Shown here: positions 13,400 through 38,778 of the stretch, one piece after another
Position numbering within the stretch: the stretch's first letter is position 1
Layout: every line of letters starts with the position of its first letter
DNA from: Blastocystis sp. Blastoise
Lineage: Eukaryota; Protista; Bigyra: Opalinata
Reading direction: 5' to 3'
NCBI GenBank assembly: GCA_039096225.1
Contig: JBBPEB010000004.1
Span: 1,178,001-1,242,000, forward strand
DNA: 64,000 nt
Program-made: the position numbers and the translations under genes
Notes under the pieces: generated by a model
Databases searched by the model: none
Told to the model about the DNA's origin: nothing
What the model saw: the letters and a program-made list of their open reading frames with translations, nothing else

Positions 13400-13529
13400 T
13401 TTAATAATACTTCCGCTCTTCGATCTCCAGTATTTCACTCGATATTACCCCTGTATCGGAAAATCATACTGATTTTCCGATCAGGGGTAATAGACGAGTG
13501 CTGGAGATCTCGGCTGAAGTATTATTAAA
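13400..13529. other. Left terminal imperfect palindrome/hairpin (130 nt; loop TAC at 13467-13469)
   Basis: Stems of 14, 9, 6, 11 and 12 bp are separated by bulges and internal loops, e.g. ATCGGAAAATCA-tac-TGATTTTCCGAT and TATTACCCCTG/CAGGGGTAATA. Confidence 0.95.
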
Positions 13530-13760
13530 ACTTCCGAAACATGGGGAAGTGATAAAAGTAAGGGTAGTTTTAAAAATAATCAAAAAAGTAATTTTAAAGT
13601 GATTTGATTGGTCCATTTGGGGGTGTGCGTCATCGATTTCTAATTCCCTAATATTATAAAATATTTTTTTGCATTATGGATTATGGATTTCATAAATCAA
13701 TAAACCCATAATCCCCTTATATCTACAGAGTTTGGGGAAAAAAATTTCAAAACTGGCTCT
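13407..13760 (+). repeat. Left terminal inverted repeat (354 bp)
   Basis: ATACTTCCGCTCTTCGATC...CAAAACTGGCTCT is the reverse complement of 38425-38778. The lengths are equal and I found no mismatch by eye. Confidence 0.97.
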
Positions 13761-13949
13761 ATTTTTCTTTGTTATTTTTATTATGGTTTATTTTAAATAA
13801 ATAAAAAGACCCGACATAACCGGGGATAGAACCCTTATATGTATATTTTTCAACATATCGTCGTATCCACCTGATATGCCAGGTCTCACTTTATATTTTT
13901 ATTATTATTTTTTTTAAACCAAACAAATTAAATATAATCAAAAAAAAAA

Positions 13950-16900
13950 TTAATAACCAAAATAAGGAGCATAATACTCTTTATTTTCATAAAATATTTT
14001 TAATTTTTTGACATTTTTCGAAAATAAATTAGCGTCAAAGCCGACAATATTCACTACAGAGGTACTAATACGGTATTCTTCCGTGAATTTTTTCATATTA
14101 ACACTATAATTATAAGATTTATCAATAAGAATACCTTTAATACCTATAGCAGTGTGATCCTTATAGTATTCGCTTTGATGAGTTCTACGGTAATCCAACA
14201 TATCAATTTCGTAGAATTCGGAGTTTGCCAGAAATGCAGTACACAACTGCTTGAAAAATTTATCTAGATTTGTCTGGATAGTAAATTTAGCATCTTTATT
14301 AAAATCTTTATAAGCGATAAAGATATCTTCTAAAGATACGACATTAATAAAGAAAGGATCTATTTGTAATTTAGCCTTGACAAAATCTTTCATATTATAT
14401 CCAGAAGAACATTTTTCTAAGAAATCTTCTTTACACGTGGCAATGGCTTGTATTCCTTGTAAAATATCCATATTAAGACGTAAGCTACGTTCAAGATAGT
14501 GGAAGATTAACCAAGAGAATATAGCATTTGTATGTTTTTTAAACAGAAAAGATACGTTAGGATCCATTGGATAGTGATTTTTCTTTTTAGCTAGAAGACC
14601 TTGATTCACGGCTATTTGGATTTCTTCCTCTGTATTATATCGTTTTCTCTTGGTTAAATAATCTCCTTTAGGTTCATAGAGTGTTACTGATGAAGGTGGT
14701 AAATAGCGGCAAAGTGACGGTAAGAAGACTACTCTACGTTCTAAAGGTCCGGCATTCACGGCAGTAGGTTGAATATTAGAGGTAACAAAAAGAATTCCCG
14801 TGTAATTATAGGTTTGAATAACATTAGAGTGAAGAAGACGAGCAGTAGCGTCTGATTTCTTTTCACATAATTCCTTGAATATACGAGATTCTAGGGGATT
14901 TACAGATTTCTTAAACCCTCCTGAATGTTCACTAAGTTCATTCATATAATACATAGTTTTATTATGTAAATTAAGTAGAAATGGAGAAGCTGAAGTTTCT
15001 TCAAAGTTATCAGGATTTACGGGAATACATTGATTATTACCTAGAATATTTTTCATAATATCAGTAGTTATAGTTTTTCCATTGGCACCAGAAGTACCAT
15101 ATAGGATATAACACCAAGTGTGATCGGAACAACAATAGAGTGATTGACAAATGATTTGCATCATAGCATCTGCGTAATCACCGTCGCCTCCACAATAACG
15201 TAATACATGTCTTTGAAATTGTTTTATAGCATCAAAGTCTTCAGGTACATGTTTTGTTTTAGGGACAATTTGTGCATTAATAATCATTTCTTCAAAGATA
15301 ATATCTTCTTTTTCATAGGGAATTACATCATAAGAAGGAGAATGTAAAAGGTGATATTGTGCTCCAGGGAATTCAGCTGTCCAATCATCTACAATGGTTG
15401 GTTCAGGGGCATTTGTTAGCGGAACAACAAAACCGACATTTGTATAAATAACATTTTCTCTATGTTTGAGATGAATATCTCTGAAAGTTTCATAAGATAT
15501 AGCGTAAGTTTTCTGATATCTAGCTAACCATTCCTTATAGTTTTTTTCATTTGTTTTAGAGGCATTTTGAAGTTTATTAAGAGAGAATATATGACTCTTA
15601 AGTTCTTTTTTAAATTGTTTTGCTTGTTGAAAGTTCTCGGCAATTGAATTAGCAAAAGAAGTAATTTCTGATTCAAAGAAGTTAACATCATAAGAATGGT
15701 GAATATTTCTTAAAACGTTGAATTCATCATAAGCATATATCTTTACGAATTTTTTAGATATATCTTCAACCATAACACGATCATTAAAGCAGAAAGTTTT
15801 GAATAATTCCACGAATGCTTGAGAAGTAACTTCATTATGTCTAGATATAGATTTCATCACATGGCAAAAGATATAATCATTCTTACAATCTATTGGTAGT
15901 TTATTGTGTTTTTGTAAGATAAAGAAAAGATACGAAGAATCTTTAAAATAATTATAAGATTCATAGCTAGACGTATTATTCCAAGTAGATTTGAATTTCT
16001 GTAAGCTACGAGTATGAGAACATGAGTTACTTATATTCATAAAAAGATTCAAAGTATCTTCAGAGTTATTATAATTATTTGTAGCACGTATAAGCTTATA
16101 CCATTCATTATGAGATTCAAAATAATATCCATTATCTATTTCAGAAATAAGTGTTAGTATTTGTTCTAATAAATTAAATTCATAATTATCTACTTCTTCA
16201 GAGTTATTATCCATAGTAGCAGGGTTAATATCTTTATAAGCTTTATTAATAGAGTATGCTGTAGTAAAACTATTAATAGTATCTTTATCAAAGGATAATA
16301 TTTTATGAAGGTATCTTTTTACATTATTTTTATTTAATAGTTCTGAAAATAAAACATAATTACTGAAACATACAAAAACATCATTAGGAGAATTATAATT
16401 AAGTAGAGTAGAATAATAAGCATTTTTGATTATATCAGAGTTTTCAAAATTAATTTTTTGCCAAGAATTTGATTCATACATATCGTAGAAATCATATGTA
16501 GACGGAGAATTAGTTTTAGAACATCCAAGCATCATTACACCATTATTTCGATTCTTATTTGCAATTACGGCTCCATCAATAAAGCGACTAGGAATTACAT
16601 TCATAGAGTTACATATAGATTTAACCATATCATCTTCAACAATTTCATTATATATATGAGTTAAAATATCAATTTTTATAAACCAATTGGTGAAGACGTG
16701 CATACCCCAACTATAGAAGAGACCATTTGCTTTTTCTTTTCTATTGACAAGCTTCTTAGTAGTAATAATATTCATATTATTTGGATTATATATCTTTAAG
16801 AACAATTGACTAATACGTTCAATCAGCATATGTATATTATTATCAGATAGATCGGAGAATTCATTTTCTTCACGGCAACAATCAAGATCAAACCATAATC

Positions 16901-17114
16901 GACGATAAGCTTTCTCAACAGTAGTAGGGACAACATCAATATAATGCTTAAGTTCAGGGACTCCACCAGGTTGTTTACTATCTAAATAATATTTATACAT
17001 ATAATCATAGAATTTCGAAGGGTTTTGAACAACTGTAGCAGCCCTGTTATCCATAGTATTTTCTTGATTGAAGGTAGAATACTTACAAATTGTTTGATTT
17101 TGAATTTCAGCCAT
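13950..17114 (-). CDS. Primase-helicase: AEP-like primase + PriCT-2 + D5-like SF3 helicase
   Basis: AEP motifs LWFDLDC, WGMHVF, FIDGAV and MLGCSK; PriCT-2-like HNEWYKLIRA...KSTWN; Walker A GTSGANGKT, Walker B YYMNE, motif C FVTSN, Arg finger LERR. First ATG is at 17114 (the ORF track starts at TTG 17141). Confidence 0.9.
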   Translation of the reverse strand: MAEIQNQTICKYSTFNQENTMDNRAATVVQNPSKFYDYMYKYYLDSKQPGGVPELKHYIDVVPTTVEKAYRRLWFDLDCCREENEFSDLSDNNIHMLIERISQLFLKIYNPNNMNIITTKKLVNRKEKANGLFYSWGMHVFTNWFIKIDILTHIYNEIVEDDMVKSICNSMNVIPSRFIDGAVIANKNRNNGVMMLGCSKTNSPSTYDFYDMYESNSWQKINFENSDIIKNAYYSTLLNYNSPNDVFVCFSNYVLFSELLNKNNVKRYLHKILSFDKDTINSFTTAYSINKAYKDINPATMDNNSEEVDNYEFNLLEQILTLISEIDNGYYFESHNEWYKLIRATNNYNNSEDTLNLFMNISNSCSHTRSLQKFKSTWNNTSSYESYNYFKDSSYLFFILQKHNKLPIDCKNDYIFCHVMKSISRHNEVTSQAFVELFKTFCFNDRVMVEDISKKFVKIYAYDEFNVLRNIHHSYDVNFFESEITSFANSIAENFQQAKQFKKELKSHIFSLNKLQNASKTNEKNYKEWLARYQKTYAISYETFRDIHLKHRENVIYTNVGFVVPLTNAPEPTIVDDWTAEFPGAQYHLLHSPSYDVIPYEKEDIIFEEMIINAQIVPKTKHVPEDFDAIKQFQRHVLRYCGGDGDYADAMMQIICQSLYCCSDHTWCYILYGTSGANGKTITTDIMKNILGNNQCIPVNPDNFEETSASPFLLNLHNKTMYYMNELSEHSGGFKKSVNPLESRIFKELCEKKSDATARLLHSNVIQTYNYTGILFVTSNIQPTAVNAGPLERRVVFLPSLCRYLPPSSVTLYEPKGDYLTKRKRYNTEEEIQIAVNQGLLAKKKNHYPMDPNVSFLFKKHTNAIFSWLIFHYLERSLRLNMDILQGIQAIATCKEDFLEKCSSGYNMKDFVKAKLQIDPFFINVVSLEDIFIAYKDFNKDAKFTIQTNLDKFFKQLCTAFLANSEFYEIDMLDYRRTHQSEYYKDHTAIGIKGILIDKSYNYSVNMKKFTEEYRISTSVVNIVGFDANLFSKNVKKLKIFYENKEYYAPYFGY

Positions 17115-17194
17115 TTTCAAATAAATATTTAAAAAATTCAAATAAATTAAATATTATTTTTAAAAGATTCAAATTAAATATTGTTTAAAAGTCT

Positions 17195-17460
17195 GTCATA
17201 TCAGGAAAAAAAATTAGAATGAATGGTTTTGAATATTTCTTCAACGTTGTCATTCCGGAAAGATTCGAAATGAATGGTTTTAAATATTGCTCCAAACGAC
17301 GTCATATCAGGAAAAACAAAATATGTGTTTTTTAGTATTGTTTCAAACGTTATCATTCCGGAAAGATTCGAAATGAGTGGTTTTGAATATTGCTCCAAAC
17401 ACCGTCATTCCGGAAAGATCCAAAATTGGTGGTTTTGAATATTGCTCCAAACTCCGTCAC
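17195..17460 (+). repeat. About five tandem 52-bp repeats in the divergent primase/SSB intergenic region
   Basis: Units start at 17195, 17249, 17301, 17352 and 17404. Consensus GTCATTCCGGAAAGATTCGAAATGAATGGTTTTGAATATTGCTCCAAACNNN. Confidence 0.9.
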
Positions 17461-17624
17461 TATGACTTAGCTATTTGTCAAAAGATATTGAAATATGATT
17501 GGCTAAATTCAAATTTTAGTGGAAACTATTATTTTTTTAGTATTCAGTCCAAATATTTTTGCAATTGCAATATTTATATAAATTTTATTTATTTATTTAT
17601 TTGAATTTTACAATTTTTTTGAAG

Positions 17625-18365
17625 ATGTCTAGTGTTATTGTCCGCCCTGAAGATTCTTTTGATGCTACGAAGTTATCCCTTGTTAAGTTAGACCCAATTG
17701 ATAATATTTCTGAAAGGTATGATGTTTATTATAAAGAAAAAAGATTATTTATTCAAACTCCCGCCTTAATTGCCCCTTTTGCTTTGAAATATTTCTCTGA
17801 TGGATTTTCTTCGAAGTTAACTTTATTTATGGATAACGAAGACTTCAATTGTCTTGTTAAGTCAATTGATGATTTTGTATATATGTCTTTATTCCCTACC
17901 GCTGAGAGTCGTGCTGTCTATATGGATTTTGTAATGAAGAAGTATCCTTATTCTCTTGATAACTCCAATTGTATTACTTGTTCTTCTGATAATTGTTCTT
18001 GTTTATCTGTTAATAGGCCTTCAAACTTACTTTATTATATAGATTCTCCTTTAAAGAGTACTCCTACTAAGGTTATGACTATCAATGTTCCTTTAAAAGA
18101 TAGTTTTGTCCGTTTGAATACTTATGATTGTGAACTGAATTTATTAACTTGTTTTCGAAATGAAAAATACTCTGTTATGAAATTTAATGAAACATTCTTA
18201 ACTCCTGGTAGTACTATTAAAGTGCTTTTTTCTGTAAGTGTTAATTATAAGATAGTCAATGGTAATCCTCGCTATTTCTTTAACTTATATGCAACTCAAA
18301 TGATGATTATTGAAAGAGGTGATCAACATTATAGTACTATGCCTGTATGTTCTATAAAACCTTAA
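17625..18365 (+). CDS. Probable OB-fold ssDNA-binding protein (NCLDV/T7 gp2.5-like)
   Basis: LFIQTP...PF motif, a helix ending IDDFV, and C-terminal PGSTIKVLF...FFNLYATQMMI resemble NCLDV SSBs. It is divergent from the primase-helicase. ATG at 17625. Confidence 0.65.
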   Translation: MSSVIVRPEDSFDATKLSLVKLDPIDNISERYDVYYKEKRLFIQTPALIAPFALKYFSDGFSSKLTLFMDNEDFNCLVKSIDDFVYMSLFPTAESRAVYMDFVMKKYPYSLDNSNCITCSSDNCSCLSVNRPSNLLYYIDSPLKSTPTKVMTINVPLKDSFVRLNTYDCELNLLTCFRNEKYSVMKFNETFLTPGSTIKVLFSVSVNYKIVNGNPRYFFNLYATQMMIIERGDQHYSTMPVCSIKP

Positions 18366-18462
18366 AAATTATTTTATTTTATTATTATATATATTTCTTA
18401 TTTATTCTATTAATGTAATTTTTTTAAATATTTGTTTTGTTTTAAAATATTATTATTTCTAT

Positions 18463-19305
18463 ATGTCAAAACAGTATTCATCCTTTGTTATTTGGCCTGG
18501 TAGTAAACGTCGGGTAGCTGGTCAAATAGCAGATATTTTAAAGTCAGTGCCTAGAAATAATAATAATGAAAATCCAATGTATATTGAACCTTTTATTGGT
18601 AGTGGTCATGTATTTTTAAATTTAATGATGCAAGATTATCAAGATAGAACTGATCGTAAATATGTAATTAGTGATACTAATACTGATTTAATAAATTGTT
18701 GGAAATATATTCGTGATTATCCAATAAAATTAATAGTTGAATTAGAAAAATTAAATGATGTAGAAGATACTTCTGATAATTATTATGAATTACGTAAAAT
18801 ATTTAATACTTGTACAAATACTTTGATGCGTTGTGCTTACTTTATTGCTTTAAATAAACGATGTTTTTGTGGTATATATTCTGTAAATCAAAAAGATGAA
18901 TTTAATACTCCATGGGGATATAAAAGAAATAAAAATATATTTAATAAAGAAAATATTTTACAAATATCATCTTTATTAAATTATAATAATGTAACTATAT
19001 TAAATGATGATTATCGTGATATAATAAAGAAATATCCTAAGGGTATATATTATATGGATCCACCCTATATGAATACATTTGATCGTTATAGTAAAGATAA
19101 ATTTTCAAATAATGAATTCTTAGAAACTGTGAAAGAAATGAAAGATGCTATATGTGTATATATATCATGCAGTAATGAAATGAAAAAATCTTTTGATGAT
19201 AAAGATATACAATATACTTCAGTATTATCATTTTATCGTCAAAATACATATGTAAGAAGTAAAGGTGTATTATATGATGAATATATTTTACATATAAATT
19301 ATTAA
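18463..19305 (+). CDS. DNA adenine N6-methyltransferase, D12/Dam family
   Basis: WPGSK, YIEPFIGSG (SAM-binding motif I), ISDTN.DLIN, and catalytic YMDPPY. Confidence 0.93.
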   Translation: MSKQYSSFVIWPGSKRRVAGQIADILKSVPRNNNNENPMYIEPFIGSGHVFLNLMMQDYQDRTDRKYVISDTNTDLINCWKYIRDYPIKLIVELEKLNDVEDTSDNYYELRKIFNTCTNTLMRCAYFIALNKRCFCGIYSVNQKDEFNTPWGYKRNKNIFNKENILQISSLLNYNNVTILNDDYRDIIKKYPKGIYYMDPPYMNTFDRYSKDKFSNNEFLETVKEMKDAICVYISCSNEMKKSFDDKDIQYTSVLSFYRQNTYVRSKGVLYDEYILHINY

Positions 19306-19374
19306 CATTATTTATTTATATTTTATTTATTATTAAAAGAATAGTTTTGTTATAAAAAATATATTTTATTAATA

Positions 19375-20781
19375 ATGGAAACTTGTATATTAGGTATGCC
19401 AAGCCCTGGTGCGTTTGGTATAAATAAAATAGCAGTTGGTAAAGAAAATAGACCTTATAAACCTCAACCATTAAAAACATTAGATGAATATAATCCATTA
19501 ATATTTGAAGTAGGTCCAAATTCATCTTTTTTAGTATCAAATTTAAAAAAGAAAAATCAAATAGAAAATAAAATAAATTCTTATGTTAATCGTGATAAAG
19601 AATTTGGTATTAATACAGGTGCAGGAGGAGCTTTAATACAAGCAAAACCTGTAGGAAAAGGTGTAATAAATAAAAGGCGATATGATGATACTGTAGATAA
19701 TCAAGAAGAAGCTCATACTAGTGATGATCCACAGATTAATCCTACTAATTTTAAAGCACGTAATCGTATAGGTATAAAAGGTAAAGGACTAGCTTATAAT
19801 AGTCGTGAATTAAATAAATTACAAAATAATAAAGGTGGTGGTATAATTACAAAAACTTTAGGTCATACAATGAAAGCTATAGGTAAAGCTACAAAACGTA
19901 AATCAGTAGAACATATAGGTAATATGTTAACTGGTGATAATAATGATTCACAAGGTGGTATAGTAAATGGTTCATTAAATATAATAAAGAAGATAGCCAA
20001 TAGTAATCAAGGTAATGGAATTCATAGAAAATTAAATAAAACCTTTGGTGGTACATTATTAGAAAATAATTTATCAGGAGTTATTACTGCGATGGAGTCT
20101 TCTAGAGGTGGTTCTTTAGATGATAAATCTGTAAGGAAATTCTTTAAAACAAAAAATAAAAAAGGGAAATTAATTCCACCACAAATAGCTAATGCTTTAC
20201 AATTTATGGTAGATAACCGTAAAGGAATGCGTGCAGCAGGCTTAAAGCCACTGAATATGTCTAAATTACGTAAATATATAGATTTTAATGAATCTCCCGA
20301 TGGTGAACATTTAAGATTAAAGCGTGGTGGTGCTGTAGCAGATGAGGTAATGGGTGTAATAAATAATTTACCAAATATATGGAATATGGTAAAAGAAATA
20401 CCTTCTAAAGTAATGTATTATGCACAACCAGGTAAATTAAAAGAAGCATGGGATACAATGAAAGAAGAAAATGAAATCAAGAAACAAGAAATGGAAGTAG
20501 AAGGTGATTATCATAAAGAAGAATTAAAAGAAAGAAGGAAAAATTTAGAAAATTATCAAAAACAGAAAGCAGCAAATTCTCAACAAATAAATCAAAATGA
20601 TAATTTAATAAGTGATAATTCTCAAAAAACAAAAGATATTAAACAAATAGATGATAAACCCTATAAAGCAAGTGGTGTATTACGTGCTGCTGGTAGTAAA
20701 CAAAAATTAAAAGGTAAAGCATTTTATGAATATATGCAACAATGTAAACGAAATAAACATGGCAATAAGTCAAAAAACTAA
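19375..20781 (+). CDS. Basic virion core-like precursor (468 aa) with many GG/GxG putative protease sites
   Basis: K/G-rich, with motifs GAGGA, IKGKG, NKGGG, SQGG, NQGNG, TFGG, SRGG and LKRGG. It ends on A AAA AAC TAA, overlapping the protease frame. Confidence 0.6.
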   Translation: METCILGMPSPGAFGINKIAVGKENRPYKPQPLKTLDEYNPLIFEVGPNSSFLVSNLKKKNQIENKINSYVNRDKEFGINTGAGGALIQAKPVGKGVINKRRYDDTVDNQEEAHTSDDPQINPTNFKARNRIGIKGKGLAYNSRELNKLQNNKGGGIITKTLGHTMKAIGKATKRKSVEHIGNMLTGDNNDSQGGIVNGSLNIIKKIANSNQGNGIHRKLNKTFGGTLLENNLSGVITAMESSRGGSLDDKSVRKFFKTKNKKGKLIPPQIANALQFMVDNRKGMRAAGLKPLNMSKLRKYIDFNESPDGEHLRLKRGGAVADEVMGVINNLPNIWNMVKEIPSKVMYYAQPGKLKEAWDTMKEENEIKKQEMEVEGDYHKEELKERRKNLENYQKQKAANSQQINQNDNLISDNSQKTKDIKQIDDKPYKASGVLRAAGSKQKLKGKAFYEYMQQCKRNKHGNKSKN

Positions 20782-21362
20782 GAGGAGGAGGTTTAGAAGA
20801 AAGTAAAAATGAGAAAATAATACAAGAACACTTAGATTGTGATAATCCTATTATAAGTGATTCTGATAGAAAAGTAACTCCTAGATCTCCTGAAAATTTT
20901 TCTCAAAAAATAAGTCAATATACATTAATTCCTAAAAATTTAATAAAACAAATTTATAATTATGGTTATTTAAATAAACCAACAAGTGCTGTAGCTTGTA
21001 GTCGTGCAAAATCAACAATGAATATGTTAAATCATTCAAATCCAAATGGATATAATTATTATAATAGTTATGAAGAATTTGAAAATAATATAGATAATGA
21101 TAGAACAAAATATAATATGATATTTCATCAAAGTAATTCAGATCCTAACTTTGGACATTTTGAAGCTATTATCTATACTCCAAAGAAAATAGAACATTAT
21201 AGTAGTCTTGGGAATAAACCTAATTTTAGTAGAAATTTTGTAAATAGTCATAACATAGTATTCAGTCCTATTCAACATCAAAGCACATCTGAAAATGCTA
21301 ATGGTTGCTTTTATTATTCTTTATTATATTTATTAAGTAATAGTAATATAATGCCTTGTTAA
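20769..21362 (+). CDS. Adenain/Ulp1-like cysteine maturation protease (frame open from 20769; first ATG only at 21018)
   Basis: GHFEAI (catalytic His), IEHYSSLG (equivalent to the YFDSxG strand, with Asp replaced), QHQ...NGCFYYSL (oxyanion Gln and catalytic Cys). Confidence 0.75.
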   Translation, partial: VKKLRGGGLEESKNEKIIQEHLDCDNPIISDSDRKVTPRSPENFSQKISQYTLIPKNLIKQIYNYGYLNKPTSAVACSRAKSTMNMLNHSNPNGYNYYNSYEEFENNIDNDRTKYNMIFHQSNSDPNFGHFEAIIYTPKKIEHYSSLGNKPNFSRNFVNSHNIVFSPIQHQSTSENANGCFYYSLLYLLSNSNIMPC

Positions 21363-21448
21363 AAATTCTGATGTGAACTGAATATATTAAACAAAAATAA
21401 GTTTTCTTTATTGGCATAATTATTTTATTTTTCTATATAGTAATAAAA

Positions 21449-21868
21449 ATGTCACAACCTATTAATATGCATAATATGACTTATGCAAATTTTGCTGAAG
21501 AATTACGTGGTATAAAGAAAGATGCTATAAGGTCCTATGGAAATCGTATATTTAGTTTATGTTGTAGATTTATAGATTTTCATAAGAATGCAAATTTTAC
21601 AAAAAATGAATTAAATGGCTTACGTCGTGCCAGTGAATTTATAGATGATAATCAATGTCGTAAAGAAATTCAAAATATTATAGATAAGGAAATACAAAAA
21701 ATATATTCTAAAAATATTTATAATAATAATAATTCTATTCTATCTTCACAACCACATATATCTTCTATAGATAATGATTTAACACAGCCACCCTTTATAA
21801 ATAATAATCGTATGAATCAAAATGATTGTATGTCAGTAAATTCTTTTTTTAATAATAATAATAATTAA
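21449..21868 (+). CDS. Viral hypothetical protein (139 aa)
   Basis: Clean ORF with an AAAAATG start; no family recognised. Confidence 0.7.
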   Translation: MSQPINMHNMTYANFAEELRGIKKDAIRSYGNRIFSLCCRFIDFHKNANFTKNELNGLRRASEFIDDNQCRKEIQNIIDKEIQKIYSKNIYNNNNSILSSQPHISSIDNDLTQPPFINNNRMNQNDCMSVNSFFNNNNN

Positions 21869-22027
21869 TTATTTTTTTTATATATAATATATATGTGTTT
21901 TGTTTTAATTTAAAAAATAATAATAATAATAACTAAACAACAAATAAAAGAATTAATAATAATTTTTAATACAATAAGAAATATAAAAATAAAAAAATAA
22001 AAATAAAATTAAATAATAAATATAAAT

Positions 22028-22660
22028 TCATTCTTTATCAGAATTAGTTGTAGTATCTTCAGATTCAGATATACAGTCAAGATTAAGAGATGAGAAAGTA
22101 ACTAAAGGAGTTAAATTACGTTCAGGTTGACTAGGTTCAATCTTAGTTCTTTTAGCTTCATGAGTAGGAGTTCTTGGTGGAGTATCAATACCATTCTTAG
22201 ATATATTATATTTTACAAATTTTTCACATTCATCATATTTTTCTTTACGGATTCTTTTCATTTGTTTAAATAATGCTTCAGGATCATACATACCATGAAT
22301 TGAAAATTCAATAAATTGAAGATTACTTTCTATATCAGAAAATTCTTCATGAATTTGTTTTACTATGAATTTATGAAGTTTTCTATTATCAGCAGAATAA
22401 TCAATAAGAGCTAAATGTTCAGGGGCAGCTTTCTTAGCATTTTCATCATTCAAGATATTATCATACATATAAAGAGTATCAAATAAATAAGTATTCAATT
22501 CCTTTATATAGTCCACTGTTTGACGGATATTAAATATATAATCATCAATATTATTATTATAAGGCTCTTTCATATTCCATTTCAATAATTCCAGTTTTTT
22601 ACTTAAATTATTTTCTTTAAGGAGTTTAGAGTAAACTAAATTATTCAAATCTTCAGACAT
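22028..22660 (-). CDS. Viral hypothetical helical protein (210 aa)
   Basis: Clean ORF; shares the TGAATT..TGAAAATG start context with the replication genes. Confidence 0.75.
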   Translation of the reverse strand: MSEDLNNLVYSKLLKENNLSKKLELLKWNMKEPYNNNIDDYIFNIRQTVDYIKELNTYLFDTLYMYDNILNDENAKKAAPEHLALIDYSADNRKLHKFIVKQIHEEFSDIESNLQFIEFSIHGMYDPEALFKQMKRIRKEKYDECEKFVKYNISKNGIDTPPRTPTHEAKRTKIEPSQPERNLTPLVTFSSLNLDCISESEDTTTNSDKE

Positions 22661-25178: not shown

Positions 25179-26768
25179 ATGAAATTATTAAGAATAAATA
25201 ATACTATTCCTATTCAATCAGATGTTGATTTACTTAATGAATCATTTGCATTTGAATATGATTGGACTAATGTTGATAGTCGTTTTACTAATTTTAATCA
25301 AAGTTATTTAGAATTATCTATTATAGTAAATGATCAAGAGGATACGATACCAGAACATTTAACAAGTACTGAAGAAGATGAAAATTATTGGGGAAATTTT
25401 ATTACTCCTATATATAAAAATGGTGCATCTTCTCAGTTAAAATTATGGGAAGTAACTCCTGGTAATGGTGTATGGAATGATAGTCTAGGTGTTACATATA
25501 CATTTAATAATTTATTATTTTTTACAAAACAAGAATTATTAAAATATTTATTAGATCAGTTAAAACAGTTAGTTAATATATATTCACTTATTGATAGTGC
25601 TGATATAGAAATGGTTTATGGTTTACCTGATGGTAGTGAACGTGCTATAAAATATCATGAATCTTCATTATTTTCATCTAGAGCTAGAAAAATGATTTTA
25701 TTAAAAGATATTCCAAAATATGAATTAGAAAAATCTATGTATGGTGAATCTTTATATTGTCCACAAAATGAATTAACATCATTTCGTTATTTAGTAAGAC
25801 ATAATAATGAATCATTAAAAATAGCTATACCATTATATCTTATAACTGGTTTAGGTGTTGATGGTGATTGTTTAAGTTTAGTAAAACATATGAAAATATT
25901 ATTTCGTACAGCTCCTATTAAATCAATGCTTAAAAATGATGATATTATATATACAAAAAAATTTATACCTTCAAAAACATCAGGTCAAATATATGATAAA
26001 GTAAATGAACAAACTATATGGAATACTTTAAATATAAGTTGGATAGATAAATTTATTTTAAAAGGTGCAAATTTATATTTAATGACATATGAAGATGTAA
26101 CATTTAATCATGATGAATTATATAAAACAATACCTACCTATATACAACTAGATTATAGATATGATCCTATTAAAAGAAATACATTTAATATTAATAGAGC
26201 ATTACCATTTATACCAGAATATGTATTATTTTATTTTACTGAAGGATGGGATATTAATAGAGTTAGTAATATTCCTACACCATATATATGGCCAACATAT
26301 TTAAGTTGTTTAGTAGGTAATGTACAAATGTTTCCACAAACTGAATTTCCTACTCAAAAATATTATAGTAATTTATTATTAAATGGTTGTGTTGGTGATA
26401 CTCATGAATTATATCATGATCAATGCCCAAATAAATCATTATATTCATTATGGGCAGATAATTCAAATCCTGAAACAAGTTTAGATTATGATCATTGGAT
26501 GAAACATCCTATATATATTATACCTTGTAAAAGTTTAATGAATGTTATTCCTAAACAAGGTGTAGAATTAAATTTTGATTGTGTTCTTGATGCTCATAAT
26601 GTAAAATATATTTTTAAAGATGATTCTACATATTTTGATGAATTAGGAAAATCATCTGATATGATTGTTAAACATGCTGGATATGAAAGACAAGTTAATG
26701 AAGAAATAAATGAAACTCATATGTATACAATACATATGGTTGCAGTTAGAAGTTCAAGAGATATTTAA
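25179..26768 (+). CDS. Double jelly-roll major capsid protein paralog 1 (529 aa)
   Basis: FTNFNQSYLEL, KIAIPL and PEYVLFYF motifs; collinear homology with the next gene; located in the MCP-penton-ATPase block. Confidence 0.75.
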   Translation: MKLLRINNTIPIQSDVDLLNESFAFEYDWTNVDSRFTNFNQSYLELSIIVNDQEDTIPEHLTSTEEDENYWGNFITPIYKNGASSQLKLWEVTPGNGVWNDSLGVTYTFNNLLFFTKQELLKYLLDQLKQLVNIYSLIDSADIEMVYGLPDGSERAIKYHESSLFSSRARKMILLKDIPKYELEKSMYGESLYCPQNELTSFRYLVRHNNESLKIAIPLYLITGLGVDGDCLSLVKHMKILFRTAPIKSMLKNDDIIYTKKFIPSKTSGQIYDKVNEQTIWNTLNISWIDKFILKGANLYLMTYEDVTFNHDELYKTIPTYIQLDYRYDPIKRNTFNINRALPFIPEYVLFYFTEGWDINRVSNIPTPYIWPTYLSCLVGNVQMFPQTEFPTQKYYSNLLLNGCVGDTHELYHDQCPNKSLYSLWADNSNPETSLDYDHWMKHPIYIIPCKSLMNVIPKQGVELNFDCVLDAHNVKYIFKDDSTYFDELGKSSDMIVKHAGYERQVNEEINETHMYTIHMVAVRSSRDI

Positions 26769-26878: not shown

Positions 26879-28180
26879 ATGAATGGATTTCCACAAGATT
26901 TTTTACCTGCAGTAAATCATCAAACTATTACAGAAAATTTTATAACTGTATCTGTAACAACTGATCAAAGTTTATTAGAAGCTCCATGTAATGTAGATTT
27001 TCGTTATAATACTGTTGATAATCCTTATATTGATTTTAGTAATTCTTATTTAGAATTATGGTTTGGTGTTAGAAAAAGTGCTACTAATAATACTGCTGTT
27101 ACACAAAGTTCTAATATATATTCTATAGTTGATAAAGTTAATATTAATATGACTTATATTAGTCCAGTTGGAAAAGATGTAGCTATAAACTTTGCTGAAC
27201 CATCATTAAATAGTAGTAAAGCTAGAAAATTTGTAGCACTTAAAGAATTAAGTAAATTTGAATTAGATAAATCTATGTATACTCCATGTGAAAAATTATA
27301 TGCAAAAAAAGATGAATTACATCTTATAGAAGCTATGAGACAAAATGCTACAACTTCAAAAGATGCATTTACAACTTATAAAATATATATTCCTTTAATG
27401 CTTATTACTGGTTTAGCTACATTTGATTGTGCTATTAAAATAAAATCAATGTCATTTCAATTTGTTTTAAATCATATTAAGAAAATAGCTACAAACTTAG
27501 ATGGTATTTCAGCATTTGTTATTCAAAAAGCATTTATTAATTTTAGACATATGTATGATATTAACTGGGGTAATGATCCAAAAAATTTAATAAAATGTAT
27601 ACCTAATAATTGTGAAATTTGTTTTTTTACTGAACAAATTGGTACTCAAACAATAACAAATTCAACTGGTAATACTGCATCATTATCTTTTACAGGAGAT
27701 TTAGTAACCAGTAAAAATCGAAGTATTACATTTGTTCCTGATTATTGTTTAATGTATATTACAGATTCAGAAGATAGTATGATTCCTGTTAATACTCATT
27801 GTCCAACAACTATTAATTTTCAAATTGGTGGAAAGAATATGTTTACACAAACACAATTTCCTACAGCTACTAGATTTATACCTGATACATATACTTTAGA
27901 AATTATTCCTAATAGTATGTTATATAATGTATGGAGATCACAATCAAATCCTATGTGTGTATTAGATGGTAATGAATGGTATAATCAACCTATATATTTA
28001 TTTCCTATTGCTTCTGTTGTTGATGTTAATACAGAATCTGGTTGTGAAATTAATTATTATATACAAACATCTCCTTCTGGTATTAATAAATATCAGTTAA
28101 CTAATGGTGCTTCTAAAACACAAAATATATTTATTAATTTTATTTTTGTGAAATTTGTTAGAGATGGTTCTATGAATTAA
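26879..28180 (+). CDS. Double jelly-roll major capsid protein paralog 2 (433 aa)
   Basis: IDFSNSYLEL N-terminal motif typical of Polinton/PLV MCPs, plus KIYIPL and PDYCLMY; beta-rich; typical size. Confidence 0.8.
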   Translation: MNGFPQDFLPAVNHQTITENFITVSVTTDQSLLEAPCNVDFRYNTVDNPYIDFSNSYLELWFGVRKSATNNTAVTQSSNIYSIVDKVNINMTYISPVGKDVAINFAEPSLNSSKARKFVALKELSKFELDKSMYTPCEKLYAKKDELHLIEAMRQNATTSKDAFTTYKIYIPLMLITGLATFDCAIKIKSMSFQFVLNHIKKIATNLDGISAFVIQKAFINFRHMYDINWGNDPKNLIKCIPNNCEICFFTEQIGTQTITNSTGNTASLSFTGDLVTSKNRSITFVPDYCLMYITDSEDSMIPVNTHCPTTINFQIGGKNMFTQTQFPTATRFIPDTYTLEIIPNSMLYNVWRSQSNPMCVLDGNEWYNQPIYLFPIASVVDVNTESGCEINYYIQTSPSGINKYQLTNGASKTQNIFINFIFVKFVRDGSMN

Positions 28181-29009: not shown

Positions 29010-30056
29010 ATGGTTAATAAAAAGAATTTATTAGAAAATGATAAAAGTGGTTGTGGTGTATTAGCATTTAAATATGGTAAAACACATCATAAAACTTATG
29101 AATCAAAATTTATATTAATTATTGCTAGAACATTTAGTGGTAAATCATGGTTAACAGTTAATTTACTTGCTTCTATGGATTTAAATAATAAATTTCGTCA
29201 AGTAAGTTTATTTTGTCCTAAAGCTAGTTCTATGAATGAATGTTATACATCATTACAAGATTTATTAGAACATGCTGAAATAAAATATCAATGGTATGAT
29301 AGTATTGATGATAAATTTAAAAAAATAAAAAGTATTGATGATCTTGTAACTACATATAAATTACCAGAACATAATTTTATTATTTTTGATGATATATATC
29401 CATTATCAAAAGAAACAAAACTATTATTGATATCATTATTATCTAAAGGTAGACATTATAAACAAAATGCTATTATATGTTTACAAAGCCATAAAGATAT
29501 TACAAATCAAAGTGTATTAAGTCAAGTAAGTCATTTTTTTATTAATAGTCAAGTTTTAAAACGTGATCCTGGTTTATTATTAAAAAAATTACAGTTAGAT
29601 CCACCTAATTTAGAAGAAATATTATCTGATATGGAATTAATAGAAGATAAACATCAATTTTTTATGTTAAAACAAGGTTGTGATGATTTAATACCTTGGA
29701 CTAATCCTGATGTTGGTACAAAACAAAATGCTTATAAAATGATGAAAAAACGTAAATGGACTGATATGGATGAAGCAAATGAAAAACGTGAAGAAGGAAA
29801 TGGTGGTAATATTAATTCTGATAATAAGAAAAGTAATAATGTAAATAATGATTATCTTTCAAAAAGAATAAAAAAAATATTACCAAATGAAGAAGATATA
29901 CAACTACGTGGTACAGAAATACCTGATAAAGATAAACCTAAAGATGATATTCTGCAAATATTACATGAACAAATACTACAAGATCAAAGATTAAAATATT
30001 TTAATCCATATCCTATGAAACGTAGATATCATGGTGCTCCATATCAATATAATTAA
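29010..30056 (+). CDS. A32-like (FtsK-HerA) DNA packaging ATPase
   Basis: Variant Walker A ARTFSGKS, Walker B FIIFDD, and KGRH...ICLQS (Arg finger and conserved Gln). Confidence 0.9.
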   Translation: MVNKKNLLENDKSGCGVLAFKYGKTHHKTYESKFILIIARTFSGKSWLTVNLLASMDLNNKFRQVSLFCPKASSMNECYTSLQDLLEHAEIKYQWYDSIDDKFKKIKSIDDLVTTYKLPEHNFIIFDDIYPLSKETKLLLISLLSKGRHYKQNAIICLQSHKDITNQSVLSQVSHFFINSQVLKRDPGLLLKKLQLDPPNLEEILSDMELIEDKHQFFMLKQGCDDLIPWTNPDVGTKQNAYKMMKKRKWTDMDEANEKREEGNGGNINSDNKKSNNVNNDYLSKRIKKILPNEEDIQLRGTEIPDKDKPKDDILQILHEQILQDQRLKYFNPYPMKRRYHGAPYQYN

Positions 30057-30862: not shown

Positions 30863-31851
30863 ATGGATCAAAATAGTAGATATAGACATATTACTTTACA
30901 AGATATTTTAAATCGTAATTTTAAGCAACAATCTTGGGATCCATGGTTACCAAATAGTTATATATGTGAAGATGAACAACCAGTAATGCGTATTGCTCAT
31001 GATCCTAATGCACAAAATTCTATGAGTCAAATTATGAATATGGAAAAATATTTAAAAGAAAAAATGACTGATAAAGATATATTTATTAGTCAAATGAATG
31101 CAGCTAGAAAAGAAGGTGATGAAGAACGAGTTACAGCTATGGCTAAAATATATGCTAATAATAGTGGACTTTATACATCTAAACAAAACTGGTCTTTAAA
31201 CAAAGAGTATTTATATATTTTAGTTTAATATAGATATATAGTCTAGAAAAAATCCCTCCAAATCTAAAATTCCAAAATCGAGTTGATGATAAAAATACAT
31301 CCCCTAATCGTGGTTATGTTAATTCTTTACTAAATTATTTTACTGTTAAAAAAGAAGAAAATAATGATTTTTTTAATAATAATGAATTACCAAGTTTAAG
31401 ATATGAAAATGAATATGGTCATACTGATAATAAAGATAACAAACAAGATGATAAACAAGATAATAATCAAAATAATAATGATCAACAATCAGATATACAA
31501 ACAGTATTAGATACAAGAGTAAATAATTTTGTTAATATGGTAACTTCATGTTTATTTACGGATGGTAAAATTAATGGAAAACAGTTACGTAATTATTTTG
31601 AAAAAAGTGAATTATTATATACTCAACCAAATCGTATACGATATGATCCAGAACAAAATAAAGCTTTATATGAAAAAAGAGAATATATATCTAATTTTAA
31701 ATATATACTAAATTCTATCAATCTAAAACAAAGCCCTGAAAATGTTAAATATATTATATATGAAAAATTAAGTAAATATTTTGAAGACTATAAATTTGGT
31801 AAAGAAGAAGAAAACATGTTATGGAATAATCCATATTCATTTCGTAAATAA
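30863..31851 (+). CDS. Viral hypothetical protein, two exons (30863-31206, 31242-31851; 317 aa)
   Basis: A 35-nt GTATTT...ATATAG intron at 31207-31241 joins ORF 30863 to the frame of ORF 31537, which is open from 31234. 344+610 nt = 318 codons including the stop. Confidence 0.7.
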
Positions 31852-31925: not shown

Positions 31926-33650
31926 ATGCAAAGTGCACCTATTGGTAATCAGTGTCCAGGTTCATTTCATTGTAATAAACTTGGAACAAAAGAATTATGG
32001 TTAGGATATACTAGGCCACATAAAGTTCCTACTATTCTTGTTACACAACCTATTAACTATAATATAATTCCTAATAGTATTGAAAAAGTATGGGAAGATG
32101 AAAATGAAATGCATACACGTAGTTATCTTATGGGTAATACCCCTGAAAATAATAAAGCTTCTATTTCTAATATTCCTATTGAAACATCACCAAATAATGA
32201 TTCTGAAGAATATGAATCTAATGATTCTGAAGAAGGTGATTCTGAAGATAATGAATCTGATGATGATGAATCTGATGAGTCTCTAAAAGGATCTGGAGGA
32301 GGACTACTGCCAGATGGCAGAATCCCAAGGCATATCGTAAAACGTCTACAAAGATATATTAACGTTGATTACCCTAGATTCAGACGAAATAATCCTGATT
32401 CAGACAATAAATATGATTCTCTATTAACATCTGAAAATTTTAATAAATATATTAAAGTTGATAAAAGTGGTTGTGGTATACTAGATCCCGAAGGAAGTGG
32501 TTGGTGGGATACCGCCAAAAATTTATTATCAAAAACATATAATACTGGAAAATCCGTTTATAACCTTGGTACTAAAGCAGTTAAAGGTGCTAGTAAATTA
32601 TTAAATGGTATTGATTATGCTACAAATATTCCTGGAAAAATTAAGGAGAAATTAGATACTGTTTCTAAAAATATTAATGGGAAAATCATACATACAAAAA
32701 ATGGAATTAAAAGGGAATATTATTCTCGTTTTGGAGATTCTACTGAAGCACCAAAAACTATGTTAAATAATTTAAAAGCTTTAAAAAATACTCAATATGA
32801 GGGTATGACTGATAAAATGAGTAAGTTAACAAAAAAACGTATTCATAAGTCTTATATTAAAAGTGATGAATTAAAAACAAATGAAGGTAAACAAAATGTT
32901 ACTAAACGTATGAACAATGTTGATAATTTAAAAGATGGTTTTAACGCATTGGCTAAAGCTGAAAATAAAAAAATTGATAAATATAATAAAAGTCAAATTA
33001 AAGCTCAAAAACAAAAACAAAAAGATATTGAATATGAAAAAGCTAAACAAGGTACTTTACAGAAAATTAAAGGTAGTCTATCAGATATGGTTACTAATGC
33101 TGGTAAAAAAATATATAATAAAACTGTTGGAGAAGTTACAGGTAATAAGTATACTGAAGAAAAACCAGATCAAAAGAATAAATTAGATCTTGTGGAAACT
33201 GGAGGAGATAGACGTAAAGTAACTAAACCTAAAAAACAATTTAATAAAGATACTTTAAGCCAATTGAGTGATGATAAAAAATCTGCAATTGAACAAAAAC
33301 GTGCTGAACGTGCTGAAAGAATTAAACATACTGAAGAAATTAATCAAAAACGTAGAGATGGTTTTAAAGCAAGAAGAGCTGAAGCCCATAAAAAAGTAGA
33401 TGAAGAAGAAACAAAACGAAAAAAAGAGAATGATGAGTGGAATAATAAGAGCTACTTAGGTCAATTCTACTCTTATATGACGACGCCAAGTAAATCAAAA
33501 GGAGAAACTGAGAAACAAAAAGACGACGGTGATTGGGTAAATAAAGAAAATGACATAAGCAACATCGATGTTGCGTCAGGTATGCGTCGACGTCGACGAA
33601 CCCTACGTAAGAAAAAGAGAAACCAGATTCTCAAAGAAATAAATTGGTAA
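31926..33650 (+). CDS. Virion precursor-like protein (574 aa) with an acidic block, GxG sites, an amphipathic helix and an Arg-rich tail (adenovirus pVI-like organisation)
   Basis: LKGSGGG, KSGCG, EGSG-WWDTAKNLLSKTYNTGKSVYNLGTKAVKG, and C-terminal VASG-MRRRRRTLRKKKR. Confidence 0.6.
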   Translation: MQSAPIGNQCPGSFHCNKLGTKELWLGYTRPHKVPTILVTQPINYNIIPNSIEKVWEDENEMHTRSYLMGNTPENNKASISNIPIETSPNNDSEEYESNDSEEGDSEDNESDDDESDESLKGSGGGLLPDGRIPRHIVKRLQRYINVDYPRFRRNNPDSDNKYDSLLTSENFNKYIKVDKSGCGILDPEGSGWWDTAKNLLSKTYNTGKSVYNLGTKAVKGASKLLNGIDYATNIPGKIKEKLDTVSKNINGKIIHTKNGIKREYYSRFGDSTEAPKTMLNNLKALKNTQYEGMTDKMSKLTKKRIHKSYIKSDELKTNEGKQNVTKRMNNVDNLKDGFNALAKAENKKIDKYNKSQIKAQKQKQKDIEYEKAKQGTLQKIKGSLSDMVTNAGKKIYNKTVGEVTGNKYTEEKPDQKNKLDLVETGGDRRKVTKPKKQFNKDTLSQLSDDKKSAIEQKRAERAERIKHTEEINQKRRDGFKARRAEAHKKVDEEETKRKKENDEWNNKSYLGQFYSYMTTPSKSKGETEKQKDDGDWVNKENDISNIDVASGMRRRRRTLRKKKRNQILKEINW

Positions 33651-33699: not shown

Positions 33700-34800
33700 A
33701 TGAACTGTACTATTCCTATGAAGAAAATGAAGAATATACATTATAATTCTATTTACTTTACGATTATCCATGTAGCTAAGTGGACTGATGAATGGAAAAA
33801 TAAGCAATTGAGTAACTTTGAACAATATATTAATCCTATGCCTGAGAAAGTATTCATGCGAATGATTGGTACACCTACTATCTTCATTGATTATATTCGT
33901 AATAAGTATAAACCTTCTATTAATACAATTAAAGCAATTGCCGAACTTATTATGTTTATCTATAAAGAAGATAAAACCTTAAAGAAGCGTATTATTGTTA
34001 TTAAAAGCTGGGAAGCCATGTATTCTATTATTAATAGTATTTATACTGATGTTCTTAAATCGAAGACTGATGCTGCTTTAAAGATGTTAAAAGATAACAA
34101 TTGCTCTTTAGAAAATTTTAAAAAGATAAGAGATACTTGTTCTGTTGCTGATCCTCTACGTTTATTAATTGATCTATATGTCTTAATGCCTCCTGCTCGT
34201 GCTGATTATGGTAACTTGATGATATATAAAGAAAAACCTGAAAAACCTGAATCTACTTCTTATGTCATTCCTACTCTAGATAGTACTATTGAAAATCCTT
34301 CTTATGAAATTCATGTTACTGAATATAAAACTGTCAAAACTTATGGTGAACGTATACTTAAGTGTTGTTCTGAATTTAATTCAGATTTAAATGAAATACT
34401 TACTTTGAATTCTAATAGTCGTTATTTATTCCATAAACCTGGTAAGAATGAATGTTATTCTCCTAAACGCTTTTCTGAATTTGTTAAAAATATTATGAGA
34501 CGTGTTGTTCCTGGAGGTATTACTATTAATAGTCTACGTAAACTCTATTGCTCTACTCATGGTAATAACTTTGAAGAAATGAATCAATTGGCTTTAGATC
34601 TCGGGCACTCTCTTAAAACTCATATTAATAACTATATGTCTATTACTACTACTGATTTCTTAACTAATTTAACTAAAGAAAATCAACTTACTATTACTCC
34701 TGTTCCTGCTGATGATGAAGATATACCTATTAACGTTAATAATGATTCTTCTAATCTTGAAAACTGGTGTAAAAACTTAAGTCAATGTTGGACTGAATAA
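33700..34800 (+). CDS. Tyrosine recombinase 1 (PLV type)
   Basis: Catalytic order R (PPARADY), K (YKTVKTYG), xxLR (INSLRK), H (LGHS), Y (HINNY). ATG at 33700. Confidence 0.9.
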   Translation: MNCTIPMKKMKNIHYNSIYFTIIHVAKWTDEWKNKQLSNFEQYINPMPEKVFMRMIGTPTIFIDYIRNKYKPSINTIKAIAELIMFIYKEDKTLKKRIIVIKSWEAMYSIINSIYTDVLKSKTDAALKMLKDNNCSLENFKKIRDTCSVADPLRLLIDLYVLMPPARADYGNLMIYKEKPEKPESTSYVIPTLDSTIENPSYEIHVTEYKTVKTYGERILKCCSEFNSDLNEILTLNSNSRYLFHKPGKNECYSPKRFSEFVKNIMRRVVPGGITINSLRKLYCSTHGNNFEEMNQLALDLGHSLKTHINNYMSITTTDFLTNLTKENQLTITPVPADDEDIPINVNNDSSNLENWCKNLSQCWTE

Positions 34801-37545: not shown

Positions 37546-38014
37546 TTACTTATAATAGTATACGACTTTTTTATACTTTCTGCATCCCTTTTTATGATGG
37601 TGTCTTCTAGTAGTATTAGGAGAACTTGGTTCAGCATAATTCACTCCTTCAGATGTATTATCTGGAGGAGCACACCAATTACAATTGCGAGGAGGTATCA
37701 AAATACTTCCATCTCTTCTCCAGGTAACATTGATATGATTTGGAAGTCTCCAAGTCAATAATCTCACCTGATCATAGAAGGCTTCTATCGACAAAGGTTC
37801 CAATTGGGGTAACAGAGTTCCATTCTCATTAGCAGGTTCATTAGTTTCATTAGAATCATCATCTATACTACTACCAACACTACCTAACTCAACTATATAT
37901 ATAAAATAATAATTGATATTTCAATTGCATACCTTTACAAACAGCTGGACTACAAGGAAGGCTATCATCAACATTAGTATCATCAGTTAACTCTAAAATA
38001 TCATTGGGATTCAT
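37546..38014 (-). CDS. Viral hypothetical protein, two exons (38014-37933, 37892-37546; 142 aa)
   Basis: A 40-nt intron (AAAG|GTATGC...ATATAG|TT at 37932-37893) joins MNPNDILEL...AVCK in frame to VELGSVG...EPLSIEAF. Confidence 0.75.
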
Positions 38015-38424
38015 TTTTAAGCTTTTATAATAAACAACAAATAAAATAAAATATGAACTTTTAAGAGAGCATTTCAAAGATAAAAATCAATCAGAGAAAC
38101 TCTGGTTTTTATAAAAATCAATGTTTTCATTGGTTGTTTTTCACTAAAAATGGGTTTTTCCTTTATGTCTTGATTTCTTATGTTTATCAATGGTTTTTAT
38201 TGATAGAAAACATTTACTATACATAATTGATTTTATTATTATAATATTATCAATTGAAACTTTTTTAAAAACTAATATTTTATATAAAAACATATATTTT
38301 TGACAATTTTAAATCAATTAATAACATTTTTTATACTTTTAAACATTAAATAATATAAATAAAAAATAAATAATATAAAATAATAAAATAAAACATATAA
38401 ACAAGCTTTCAATTGAAAAATAAA

Positions 38425-38778
38425 AGAGCCAGTTTTGAAATTTTTTTCCCCAAACTCTGTAGATATAAGGGGATTATGGGTTTATTGATTTATGAAATCC
38501 ATAATCCATAATGCAAAAAAATATTTTATAATATTAGGGAATTAGAAATCGATGACGCACACCCCCAAATGGACCAATCAAATCACTTTAAAATTACTTT
38601 TTTGATTATTTTTAAAACTACCCTTACTTTTATCACTTCCCCATGTTTCGGAAGTTTTAATAATACTTCAGCCGAGATCTCCAGCACTCGTCTATTACCC
38701 CTGATCGGAAAATCAGTATGATTTTCCGATACAGGGGTAATATCGAGTGAAATACTGGAGATCGAAGAGCGGAAGTAT
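38425..38778 (-). repeat. Right terminal inverted repeat (354 bp)
   Basis: Reverse complement of 13407-13760; ends ...GAAGAGCGGAAGTAT, followed by host CAAGTTCTG. Confidence 0.97.
38656..38778. other. Right terminal imperfect palindrome/hairpin (loop GTA at 38716-38718)
   Basis: Inverted copy of the left hairpin, with the outer arm 7 nt shorter. Confidence 0.95.

Follow-up and report, generated by a model that had tools for sequence, protein, structure and literature searches.

A candidate −1 ribosomal frameshift joining a core-like protein to an adenain-type protease in a virus integrated in Blastocystis

How is a viral protease translated when the front of its reading frame holds no start codon? 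The question is raised by a 64,000-nucleotide stretch of Blastocystis sp. Blastoise (GenBank assembly GCA_039096225.1, contig JBBPEB010000004.1, positions 1,178,001 to 1,242,000 of the forward strand; below, the window is this whole stretch, numbered from its first letter). It contains an integrated, Polinton-like element of 25.4 kb in which a 468-codon open reading frame (ORF) for a basic protein stops immediately after a slippery heptamer and a protease frame continues in the −1 register. On balance, the sequence comparisons lead us to favor programmed −1 ribosomal frameshifting at A_AAA_AAC, helped by a predicted downstream helix, as the way in which the protease is translated.

Frame Offset at the Core–Protease Junction

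The features on which the argument turns are as follows.

19375–20781, + strand: basic, Gly-rich ORF of 468 aa in the 0 frame, putative core-protein precursor (composition; homology to fused relatives)
20766–20768, + strand: TAA of the −1 frame, bounding the overlap to 20769–20778 (frame reading)
20769–21362, + strand: −1 frame ORF, predicted CE-clan cysteine protease with a conserved, family-specific front end (homologues; fold of relative P0013)
20772–20778, + strand: slippery heptamer A_AAA_AAC, in phase (codon reading)
20778–20792, + strand: −1 frame linker L-R-G-G-G, candidate protease-release site (aligns with GKG, TGG, or GAG of fused relatives)
20779–20781, + strand: 0-frame stop TAA adjoining the heptamer (codon reading)
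20786–20796, + strand: 5′ arm of the predicted 11-bp stimulatory helix (folding, pair probabilities)
20881–20891, + strand: 3′ arm of the predicted helix, closing an 84-nt loop (folding)
21018–21020, + strand: first ATG of the protease frame, an internally conserved Met (alignment; upstream G/C count)

Codon reading confirmed what the original prediction had seen at the end of the 468-aa ORF: the sequence TCA AAA AAC TAA occupies 20770–20781 and places the heptamer A AAA AAC in phase at 20772–20778. The −1 frame has a TAA at 20766–20768 and is then open from 20769 to 21362 (197 aa), and the two coding frames overlap by only 10 nt (20769–20778), with the in-phase X_XXY_YYZ motif inside the overlap, as in programmed −1 sites. 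The −1 frame begins K-L-R-G-G-G-L-E-E, and its first ATG lies at 21018 (residue 84); the 83 open codons without ATG that had been claimed for this stretch were upheld, and only 4 of 20,000 shuffles were equally free of stops. In-phase XXX-YYY-Z heptamers number 77 in 6,935 element codons and, as a motif class, are thus common in this AT-rich element. A_AAA_AAC, which ranks among the most shift-prone heptamers (PMC5009743), occurs twice in phase among these codons, and only one of the 77 heptamers, that at 20772–20778, stands directly before a stop. The heptamer, the frame offset, and the ATG-less protease front are real features of the locus.

The upstream product is rich in Lys and Arg (together 17.7%) and in Gly (9.4%), with seven GG and four GxG motifs. 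It had no match in Pfam, PHROG, or PDB sequence searches; its best database match, 100% identical over 97%, is a named NCBI protein labeled Blastocystis sp. Blastoise, and it is homologous to the N-terminal part of the fused relatives P0030 and P0050. Its composition and Gly motifs suggest a core-protein precursor.

Predicted CE-Clan Protease in the −1 Frame

The product of the −1 frame had no match in Pfam, PHROG, or PDB sequence searches either, and its assignment rests on the modeled fold of a relative. The model of P0013 (58% identical; predicted local distance difference test [pLDDT] score 70.6) gave CE-clan matches with both Foldseek and VIA, the best viral match being a MELD virus protease (E = 1.5e-6). 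Against the adenovirus protease the model aligned 118 residues with Z = 8.3 and a root-mean-square deviation of 3.2, and against pS273R of African swine fever virus (ASFV) it scored Z = 8.2; an Atlas lead was Peptidase_C5 on 13% of one cluster. His130, Gln171, and Cys180 (197-aa numbering) are invariant in the seven aligned sequences, and the motif YSSLG (21198–21212) puts an invariant Ser at the position that is usually acidic in the catalytic triad of CE proteases. By this modeled fold, the −1 frame encodes a CE-clan (adenain/Ulp1-like) cysteine protease.

The part of the frame before the first ATG is conserved as well. In each of five relatives, 36–41 of the 73 residues 11–83 are identical, and all three near-length homologues cover 89–96% of the 197-aa reading. 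The GC content of the ATG-less stretch is 26%, vs. 0–16% for 12 of the 17 other inter-ORF gaps and 16–33% for the remaining five. Since the front end is conserved, stop-free, and not an AT-rich spacer, we regard it as real coding sequence. The 50 nt upstream of ATG 21018 contain 17 G/C, vs. 0–10 for 18 ATG starts, and do not form an AT-rich leader; the Met itself is conserved internally in all aligned relatives. Purifying selection on the −1 frame between subfamilies is indicated by 9–10 amino-acid changes per 22 nucleotide changes vs. 15.3 expected (P = 0.002–0.009), a comparison with a contig of the independent run X1 (20909–21111, record 7, 22 differences) that is assumed to be of the P0028/P0049 type. 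A −1 frame that codes, is under selection, and lacks a start of its own is as expected for a programmed shift.

Predicted Helix Downstream of the Heptamer

The original prediction had reported no strong 3′ stimulatory structure. This was not borne out by folding of 20784–20900, in which an uninterrupted 11-bp helix is predicted between 20786–20796 and 20881–20891, 7 nt after the heptamer. Spacers of 5–9 nt are typical for −1 frameshift sites (PMC5009743), and the predicted structure falls within that range. Pair probabilities were 0.70–1.0 in three folding windows. At −13.5 kcal/mol, the helix was the best behind any of 80 in-phase heptamers tested, its strength was matched at 6 of 6,958 codon positions, and it ranked second among 2,746 helices in the coding sequence of the element; base shuffles equaled it in 5 of 3,000 cases. 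Folding upstream of the site gave nothing (z of +1.1 and +1.3). We take the predicted helix as moderate support for frameshifting.

The strongest helix in the coding sequence of the element, 14 bp from position 18484, lies in the 5′ coding region of the adenine methyltransferase gene (18463–19305).

Gly-Rich Linker and Candidate Cleavage

The linker LRGG|G, proposed earlier as a self-cleavage site, is the only (M/L/I)xGG among 19 element ORFs and fits both adenain cleavage motifs, (M/I/L)XGG|X and (M/I/L)XGX|G (PMC4246237). The motif is thus present as claimed, and the exact bond is less certain. At the junction the fused relatives read GKG|A, TGG|T, or GAG|L, which are not strict adenain motifs, and in relatives whose protease is called separately the ORF opens at the equivalent of the Leu just after the Gly linker, with Met where the window has Leu. 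Given these linkers and starts, RGGG|L is as likely a scissile bond as LRGG|G, and self-cleavage somewhere in the Gly-rich linker is plausible.

A second basic protein of 574 aa with GxG and GG motifs is encoded at 31926–33650. Its N-terminus weakly resembles the core protein (pairwise E = 0.001), and it is probably another substrate of the protease.

Layouts in Related Elements

Related proteins link core and protease in different ways. An in-frame fusion is found in the P0050 cluster (617 aa; of 30 members 15 were listed, and 6 of these are full-length) and also in P0026 and P0030–P0032, the last three proteins being eukaryotic gene models that could hide an intron. These in-frame fusions make a fused product natural for the family. 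In the P0051 cluster, the core stops at the junction in A-G-F in 14 of 15 listed members; Gly-Phe-stop fits the heptamer G_GGU_UUY, as ∼7% of dipeptides do by chance. In the clusters of P0003, P0013, and P0029, the protease is called separately, with a Met just after the Gly linker. The fused P0050 cluster, too, is called from an internal Met on long contigs (P0054, 252 aa, 12 contigs of up to 21 kb), which makes “separate ORF” calls in relatives weak evidence of separate genes. On a protease tree of 11 rows, the fused and the separate states each need two changes; since P0030 sits on a long branch and the rooting is arbitrary, we claim no order of events. By these database layouts, the linkage between core and protease switches between fused and split among relatives. 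The −1 product of the window is colinear with P0031 through FYEYMQ..CK..G-x-G-L, scoring 82 vs. 20–62 for spliced forms.

The offset recurs in the window’s own family. Its four database gene models (P0027, P0047, P0028, and P0049) all bridge the junction by an intron, using three different introns whose lengths on the window are each 2 mod 3. A 266-nt contig of run X1 spans 20563–20828 with 34 differences and no gaps and represents a diverged sister copy, 13 listed differences translating to the P0028/P0049 subfamily. A copy of that type needs at least 17–22 changes upstream, and a one-base misregister would add 32 downstream, for at least 49 in total vs. the 34 seen. The frame offset is thus probably genuine and common to sister copies. 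The copies are mosaic, P0049 mixing types.

No DNA loci of relatives were found in the viral contigs, genome contigs, or phage records searched; one metagenome locus (L001, 40% over 43 aa) was dropped as a chance match in an unrelated contig. The family is widespread, with metagenomic elements of ∼21–24 kb and single protease sequences on up to 256 contigs, and at least three further families carry the same Blastocystis label (proteins P0003–P0087).

Alternative Explanations

Several observations weigh against frameshifting. The loss of one A from a run ending at a codon boundary before C creates the heptamer automatically, so the motif is not independent of explanations by error or decay. The helix was equaled in 49 of 3,000 synonymous recodings (P ∼ 0.02), and in 175 of 3,000 with the 5′ arm fixed, and is therefore partly forced by the amino acids. 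Nor is the helix conserved across the family: the PRSP encoded by its 3′ arm corresponds to PKSL in the three clusters of relatives with separately called proteases. Shorter folding windows gave no structure, folding of whole windows gave z of only −1.7 or −0.5 (−1.7 being the best of four downstream windows), folding showed no pseudoknot downstream of the heptamer, and Rfam had no match near the site. The cores of P0052/P0053 end in GEGIW-stop (8 of 8), and Ile-Trp-stop is incompatible with a heptamer; conservation in relatives, suggested earlier as a check, came out mixed, with the register kept in one diverged contig and a fitting stop in P0051 but none in P0052/P0053. The X1 evidence comes from one run of contigs at a depth of 2.3, with an RNA status that is guessed and with the letters of the A-run and 48 differences not displayed, the contigs covering 18 of 30 bins of 13400–22600. 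Against P0050 and P0026, spliced forms score 60–108 and the −1 product 99–100, so the colinearity discriminates only for P0031. Only ∼10 residues separate the start of the CE core (model range 63–190) from Met84, and the product of ATG 21018 would thus be a nearly full catalytic domain.

A spliceosomal intron across the stop could also join core and protease, with partial splicing setting their ratio. The candidates include 20744–20835 and the intron proposed in the original prediction:

20714–20796, + strand: candidate intron of the rival splicing reading, GT-AG, 83 nt with 30% GC, adopted in one of the four database gene models

All four gene models do use an intron at the junction, and the donor AG|GTAAAG is plausible. 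An intron in the element has a likely precedent, too, at a second frame break (31228/31234): a 35-nt GTAT...ATAG intron with 11% GC (31207–31241) joins the ORFs 30863–31228 and 31234–31851 into a 318-codon frame and is, by its sequence, likely a spliceosomal intron inside a Polinton-like virus. A second shift site there, U_UUA_AAC at 31195–31201, was rejected, as its −1 frame meets a TAG at 31231 and the intron explains the break. The candidate at 20714–20796 is a valid GT-AG intron and restores the frame, but it is only one of 72 that do so. All 72 have 24–37% GC and none has GTAT...ATAG ends, whereas a host comparison set of AT-rich spans, itself preselected for AT richness, has GTAT in 21 of 30 and ATAG in 20 of 30. 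Blastocystis annotation has been produced with Braker3/Mikado (PMC10690189). The near-identical P0027 and P0047 were given different introns, and the models extend into the ORF that follows, both of which point to ab initio rescue. Both main candidates would remove residues conserved in the fused relatives, and the X1 contig, which may be DNA, is unspliced with no joints listed. We judge splicing to be unlikely. Transcriptional slippage on the A6 run, adding one A in some mRNAs, would give nearly the same fusion with a K-K-L junction and is known from A-runs in potyviruses and Ebola virus (PMC5009743; PMC7618844). The run is there, but it is unremarkable among the 35 A6 and 12 longer A-runs in the element ORFs, the helix 7 nt downstream fits ribosomal geometry, and X1 lists no insertion, though contigs drop rare variants; we give slippage a very low probability.

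Other explanations dispense with a fused product or with the offset. The protease could be a gene of its own, with ATG 21018 or one of two near-cognate AUA codons (20817 and 20820) as its start and the heptamer present by coincidence, and this would suit the position of the CE core close to Met84, the three metagenome clusters called as separate ORFs of 177/190 aa, and the cores whose stops are incompatible with a heptamer. It would leave 73 upstream residues conserved at ∼50–56% identity, a start without the AT-rich spacer or leader of other element genes, and a Gly linker kept in the −1 frame and, in separately called relatives, upstream of the Met; we find a separate start quite improbable. 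We think no better of inherited decay, in which an ancestral one-base loss inactivated an in-frame fusion and the copies nonetheless multiplied through recombination or aided by fused sister families of the same host. Runs of A mutate easily and losing one base here makes the heptamer by itself, a fused sister family (P0030–P0032) carries the same species label, and the copies are mosaic; yet the protease frame has stayed intact and shows purifying selection when subfamilies are compared, the terminal inverted repeats (TIRs) are 99% identical, the only other break is explained by an intron, and the helix is correctly spaced. Least probable, in our estimate, is an assembly error hiding a seventh A and a plain fusion like P0050, the one-base homopolymer indel named in the original prediction. 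Repeats polish poorly, the relatives are fused, and ...SKKLRGGGL would be a natural reading; Blastocystis assemblies combine Nanopore reads with short-read polishing (PMC10690189). The same register without gaps in the diverged X1 copy argues against such an error, all four copies need bridging, and the long ORFs of the element contain 61 other or equal A/T runs of at least six with no other unexplained break.

Proposed Mechanism and Comparison with Known Systems

The gag-pro-like frameshift of the original prediction has held up in part, in that the −1 frame has a coding, ATG-less front and a predicted CE-clan protease, relatives are fused, the offset is shared, and a 3′ helix is predicted; the core identity of the upstream protein we infer from composition and Gly motifs. 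Under programmed −1 frameshifting, the UAA next to the heptamer would end translation for most ribosomes, which would yield the core precursor alone. In a minority, to a degree set by the efficiency of the site and perhaps by the helix, a backward slip by one base would give core-(S-K-N/K-L-R-G-G-G-L)-protease. As part of this fusion the protease would enter the virion core; there it may free itself at the Gly-rich linker and then process other GG/GxG sites. The low protease-to-core ratio that had been proposed cannot be a necessity throughout the family, given that some relatives are in-frame fusions. A broader picture, which we hold only tentatively, is that of undescribed, hairpin-ended Blastocystis DNA viruses with a gag-pro-like polyprotein, whose lineages may switch among in-frame fusion, −1 frameshift (at A_AAA_AAC here and, in a lineage from gut metagenomes, perhaps at G_GGU_UUY), and split genes.

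A −1 shift linking a structural polyprotein to its protease is a hallmark of retroviruses, and mouse mammary tumor virus (MMTV) and human T-cell leukemia virus (HTLV) use A_AAA_AAC at gag-pro. The present locus resembles gag-pro of MMTV, HTLV, and simian retrovirus 1 (SRV-1) in its proposed order of structural polyprotein, −1 shift, and self-releasing protease, and in its pairing of a shift-prone heptamer with a predicted 3′ structure at 5–9 nt (PMC5009743). It differs in belonging to a double-stranded DNA (dsDNA) virus with a CE-clan cysteine protease where retroviruses have an aspartic protease, in having a long-loop 11-bp predicted helix with no pseudoknot shown, and in having close relatives with in-frame fusions or apparently split genes. 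In the Polinton/adenovirus line, the only precedent found in the open-access main text searched was a brief one: −1 extensions of Penton and Hexon–Adenain (“Hexain”) fusions predicted in adintoviruses by KnotInFrame only (PMC11071296). The adintovirus case is similar in that a predicted −1 slippery site connects a structural gene of a Polinton-like/MELD virus with a protease of adenain type. In adintoviruses that gene codes for the major capsid protein, whereas here the partner is a basic, core-like protein, the protease has no upstream ATG of its own, and fused relatives exist. Hexon–Adenain fusions by −1 shift having been predicted already, what the comparisons would add is the core-like partner, the ATG-less protease, and the fused relatives. 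The accessible text of PMC8097293, PMC8547959, PMC12220804, and 10.1101/2024.03.23.586382 mentions no such recoding.

The resemblance to the CE-clan maturation proteases (adenain, pS273R of ASFV, I7L of poxviruses, V9 of Sputnik, and the MELD virus protease) lies in the fold predicted for P0013 and in the Gly-rich motifs of the element’s basic proteins. Those five enzymes are encoded as separate genes; the family described here carries an extension of ∼60 residues ahead of the core domain and, at the usually acidic position, the invariant Ser of YSSLG. If the broader picture is right, a eukaryotic dsDNA virus would here have its first well-supported case of a programmed frameshift controlling a virion maturation protease. 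The locus offers something concrete to test, with the comparison supplied by a naturally fused in-frame relative, and it bears on protease dose and packaging in viruses whose protease is otherwise a gene by itself. It also shows why gene callers miss or mis-splice such proteases, and it is a lead to a gut-protist virus family that is widespread and has no name.

The Integrated Element

The element and its other main features are listed below.

13407–38778: integrated linear dsDNA virus, Polinton-like/MELD-like, 25.4 kb (TIRs, gene content)
13407–13769: left TIR (repeat comparison)
38416–38778: right TIR (repeat comparison)
18463–19305: D12-class adenine methyltransferase (PF02086, E = 4e-37)
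25179–26768 and 26879–28180: two capsid-like paralogs in tandem (30% identity, E = 7e-42)
29010–30056: P-loop ORF, packaging-ATPase-like (phrog_2666, E = 1.5e-9)
33700–34800, + strand: integrase-like ORF (phrog_216, E = 0.0014, weak)

The TIRs are 363 nt long and 99% complementary. The gene content includes a D5-like primase-helicase, the adenine methylase, the P-loop ATPase, the integrase-like ORF, and the two paralogous capsid-like ORFs; a single-sequence model of the capsid candidate was unusable (pLDDT 35.8), leaving a double jelly-roll fold unconfirmed. A linear genome of 10–50 kb bounded by TIRs, with a packaging ATPase, a maturation protease, and an integrase (the last by a weak match), is what Polinton-like/MELD viruses have. 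The strict definition of Polinton/Maverick, by protein-primed PolB, rve integrase, and a 6-bp target-site duplication (TSD), does not apply, as the 20 ORFs searched gave no Pfam match to PolB or an rve integrase, a primase-helicase being present instead, and no TSD was evident at the flanks. The element behaves as a Polinton-like/MELD virus without qualifying as a Polinton in the strict sense, and named database proteins place its family in Blastocystis. It shares with published Polinton-like and Blastocystis MELD viruses its integration in a protist, TIR-bounded form, size range (14–40 kb), packaging-ATPase-like gene, and protease, as well as a tyrosine-recombinase-like integration without evident TSD (PMC8502044; PMC12220804). 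The described Blastocystis MELD virus has PolB and an rve integrase (PMC8502044), whereas the present element has a D5-like primase-helicase, an adenine methylase, two paralogous capsid-like genes, and hairpin termini.

The left tip (13400–13529) folds as one long imperfect hairpin, with z = −14.3 and none of 200 shuffles as stable. The tips are imperfect palindromes of ∼130 nt, the left one mirrored at the right TIR, and the hairpin arm is 7 nt longer at the left end than at the right. By analogy with poxviruses or ASFV, the tip hairpins suggest covalently closed ends. The ORF at 34870–36669 (− strand) is convergent with that at 33700–34800 (+ strand), and both look tyrosine-recombinase-like by eye, only the latter having a weak match. 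Near the right TIR, a coding-like frame of 124 codons at 37546–37920 (− strand) lacks an ATG and is possibly spliced or translated from a non-ATG start.

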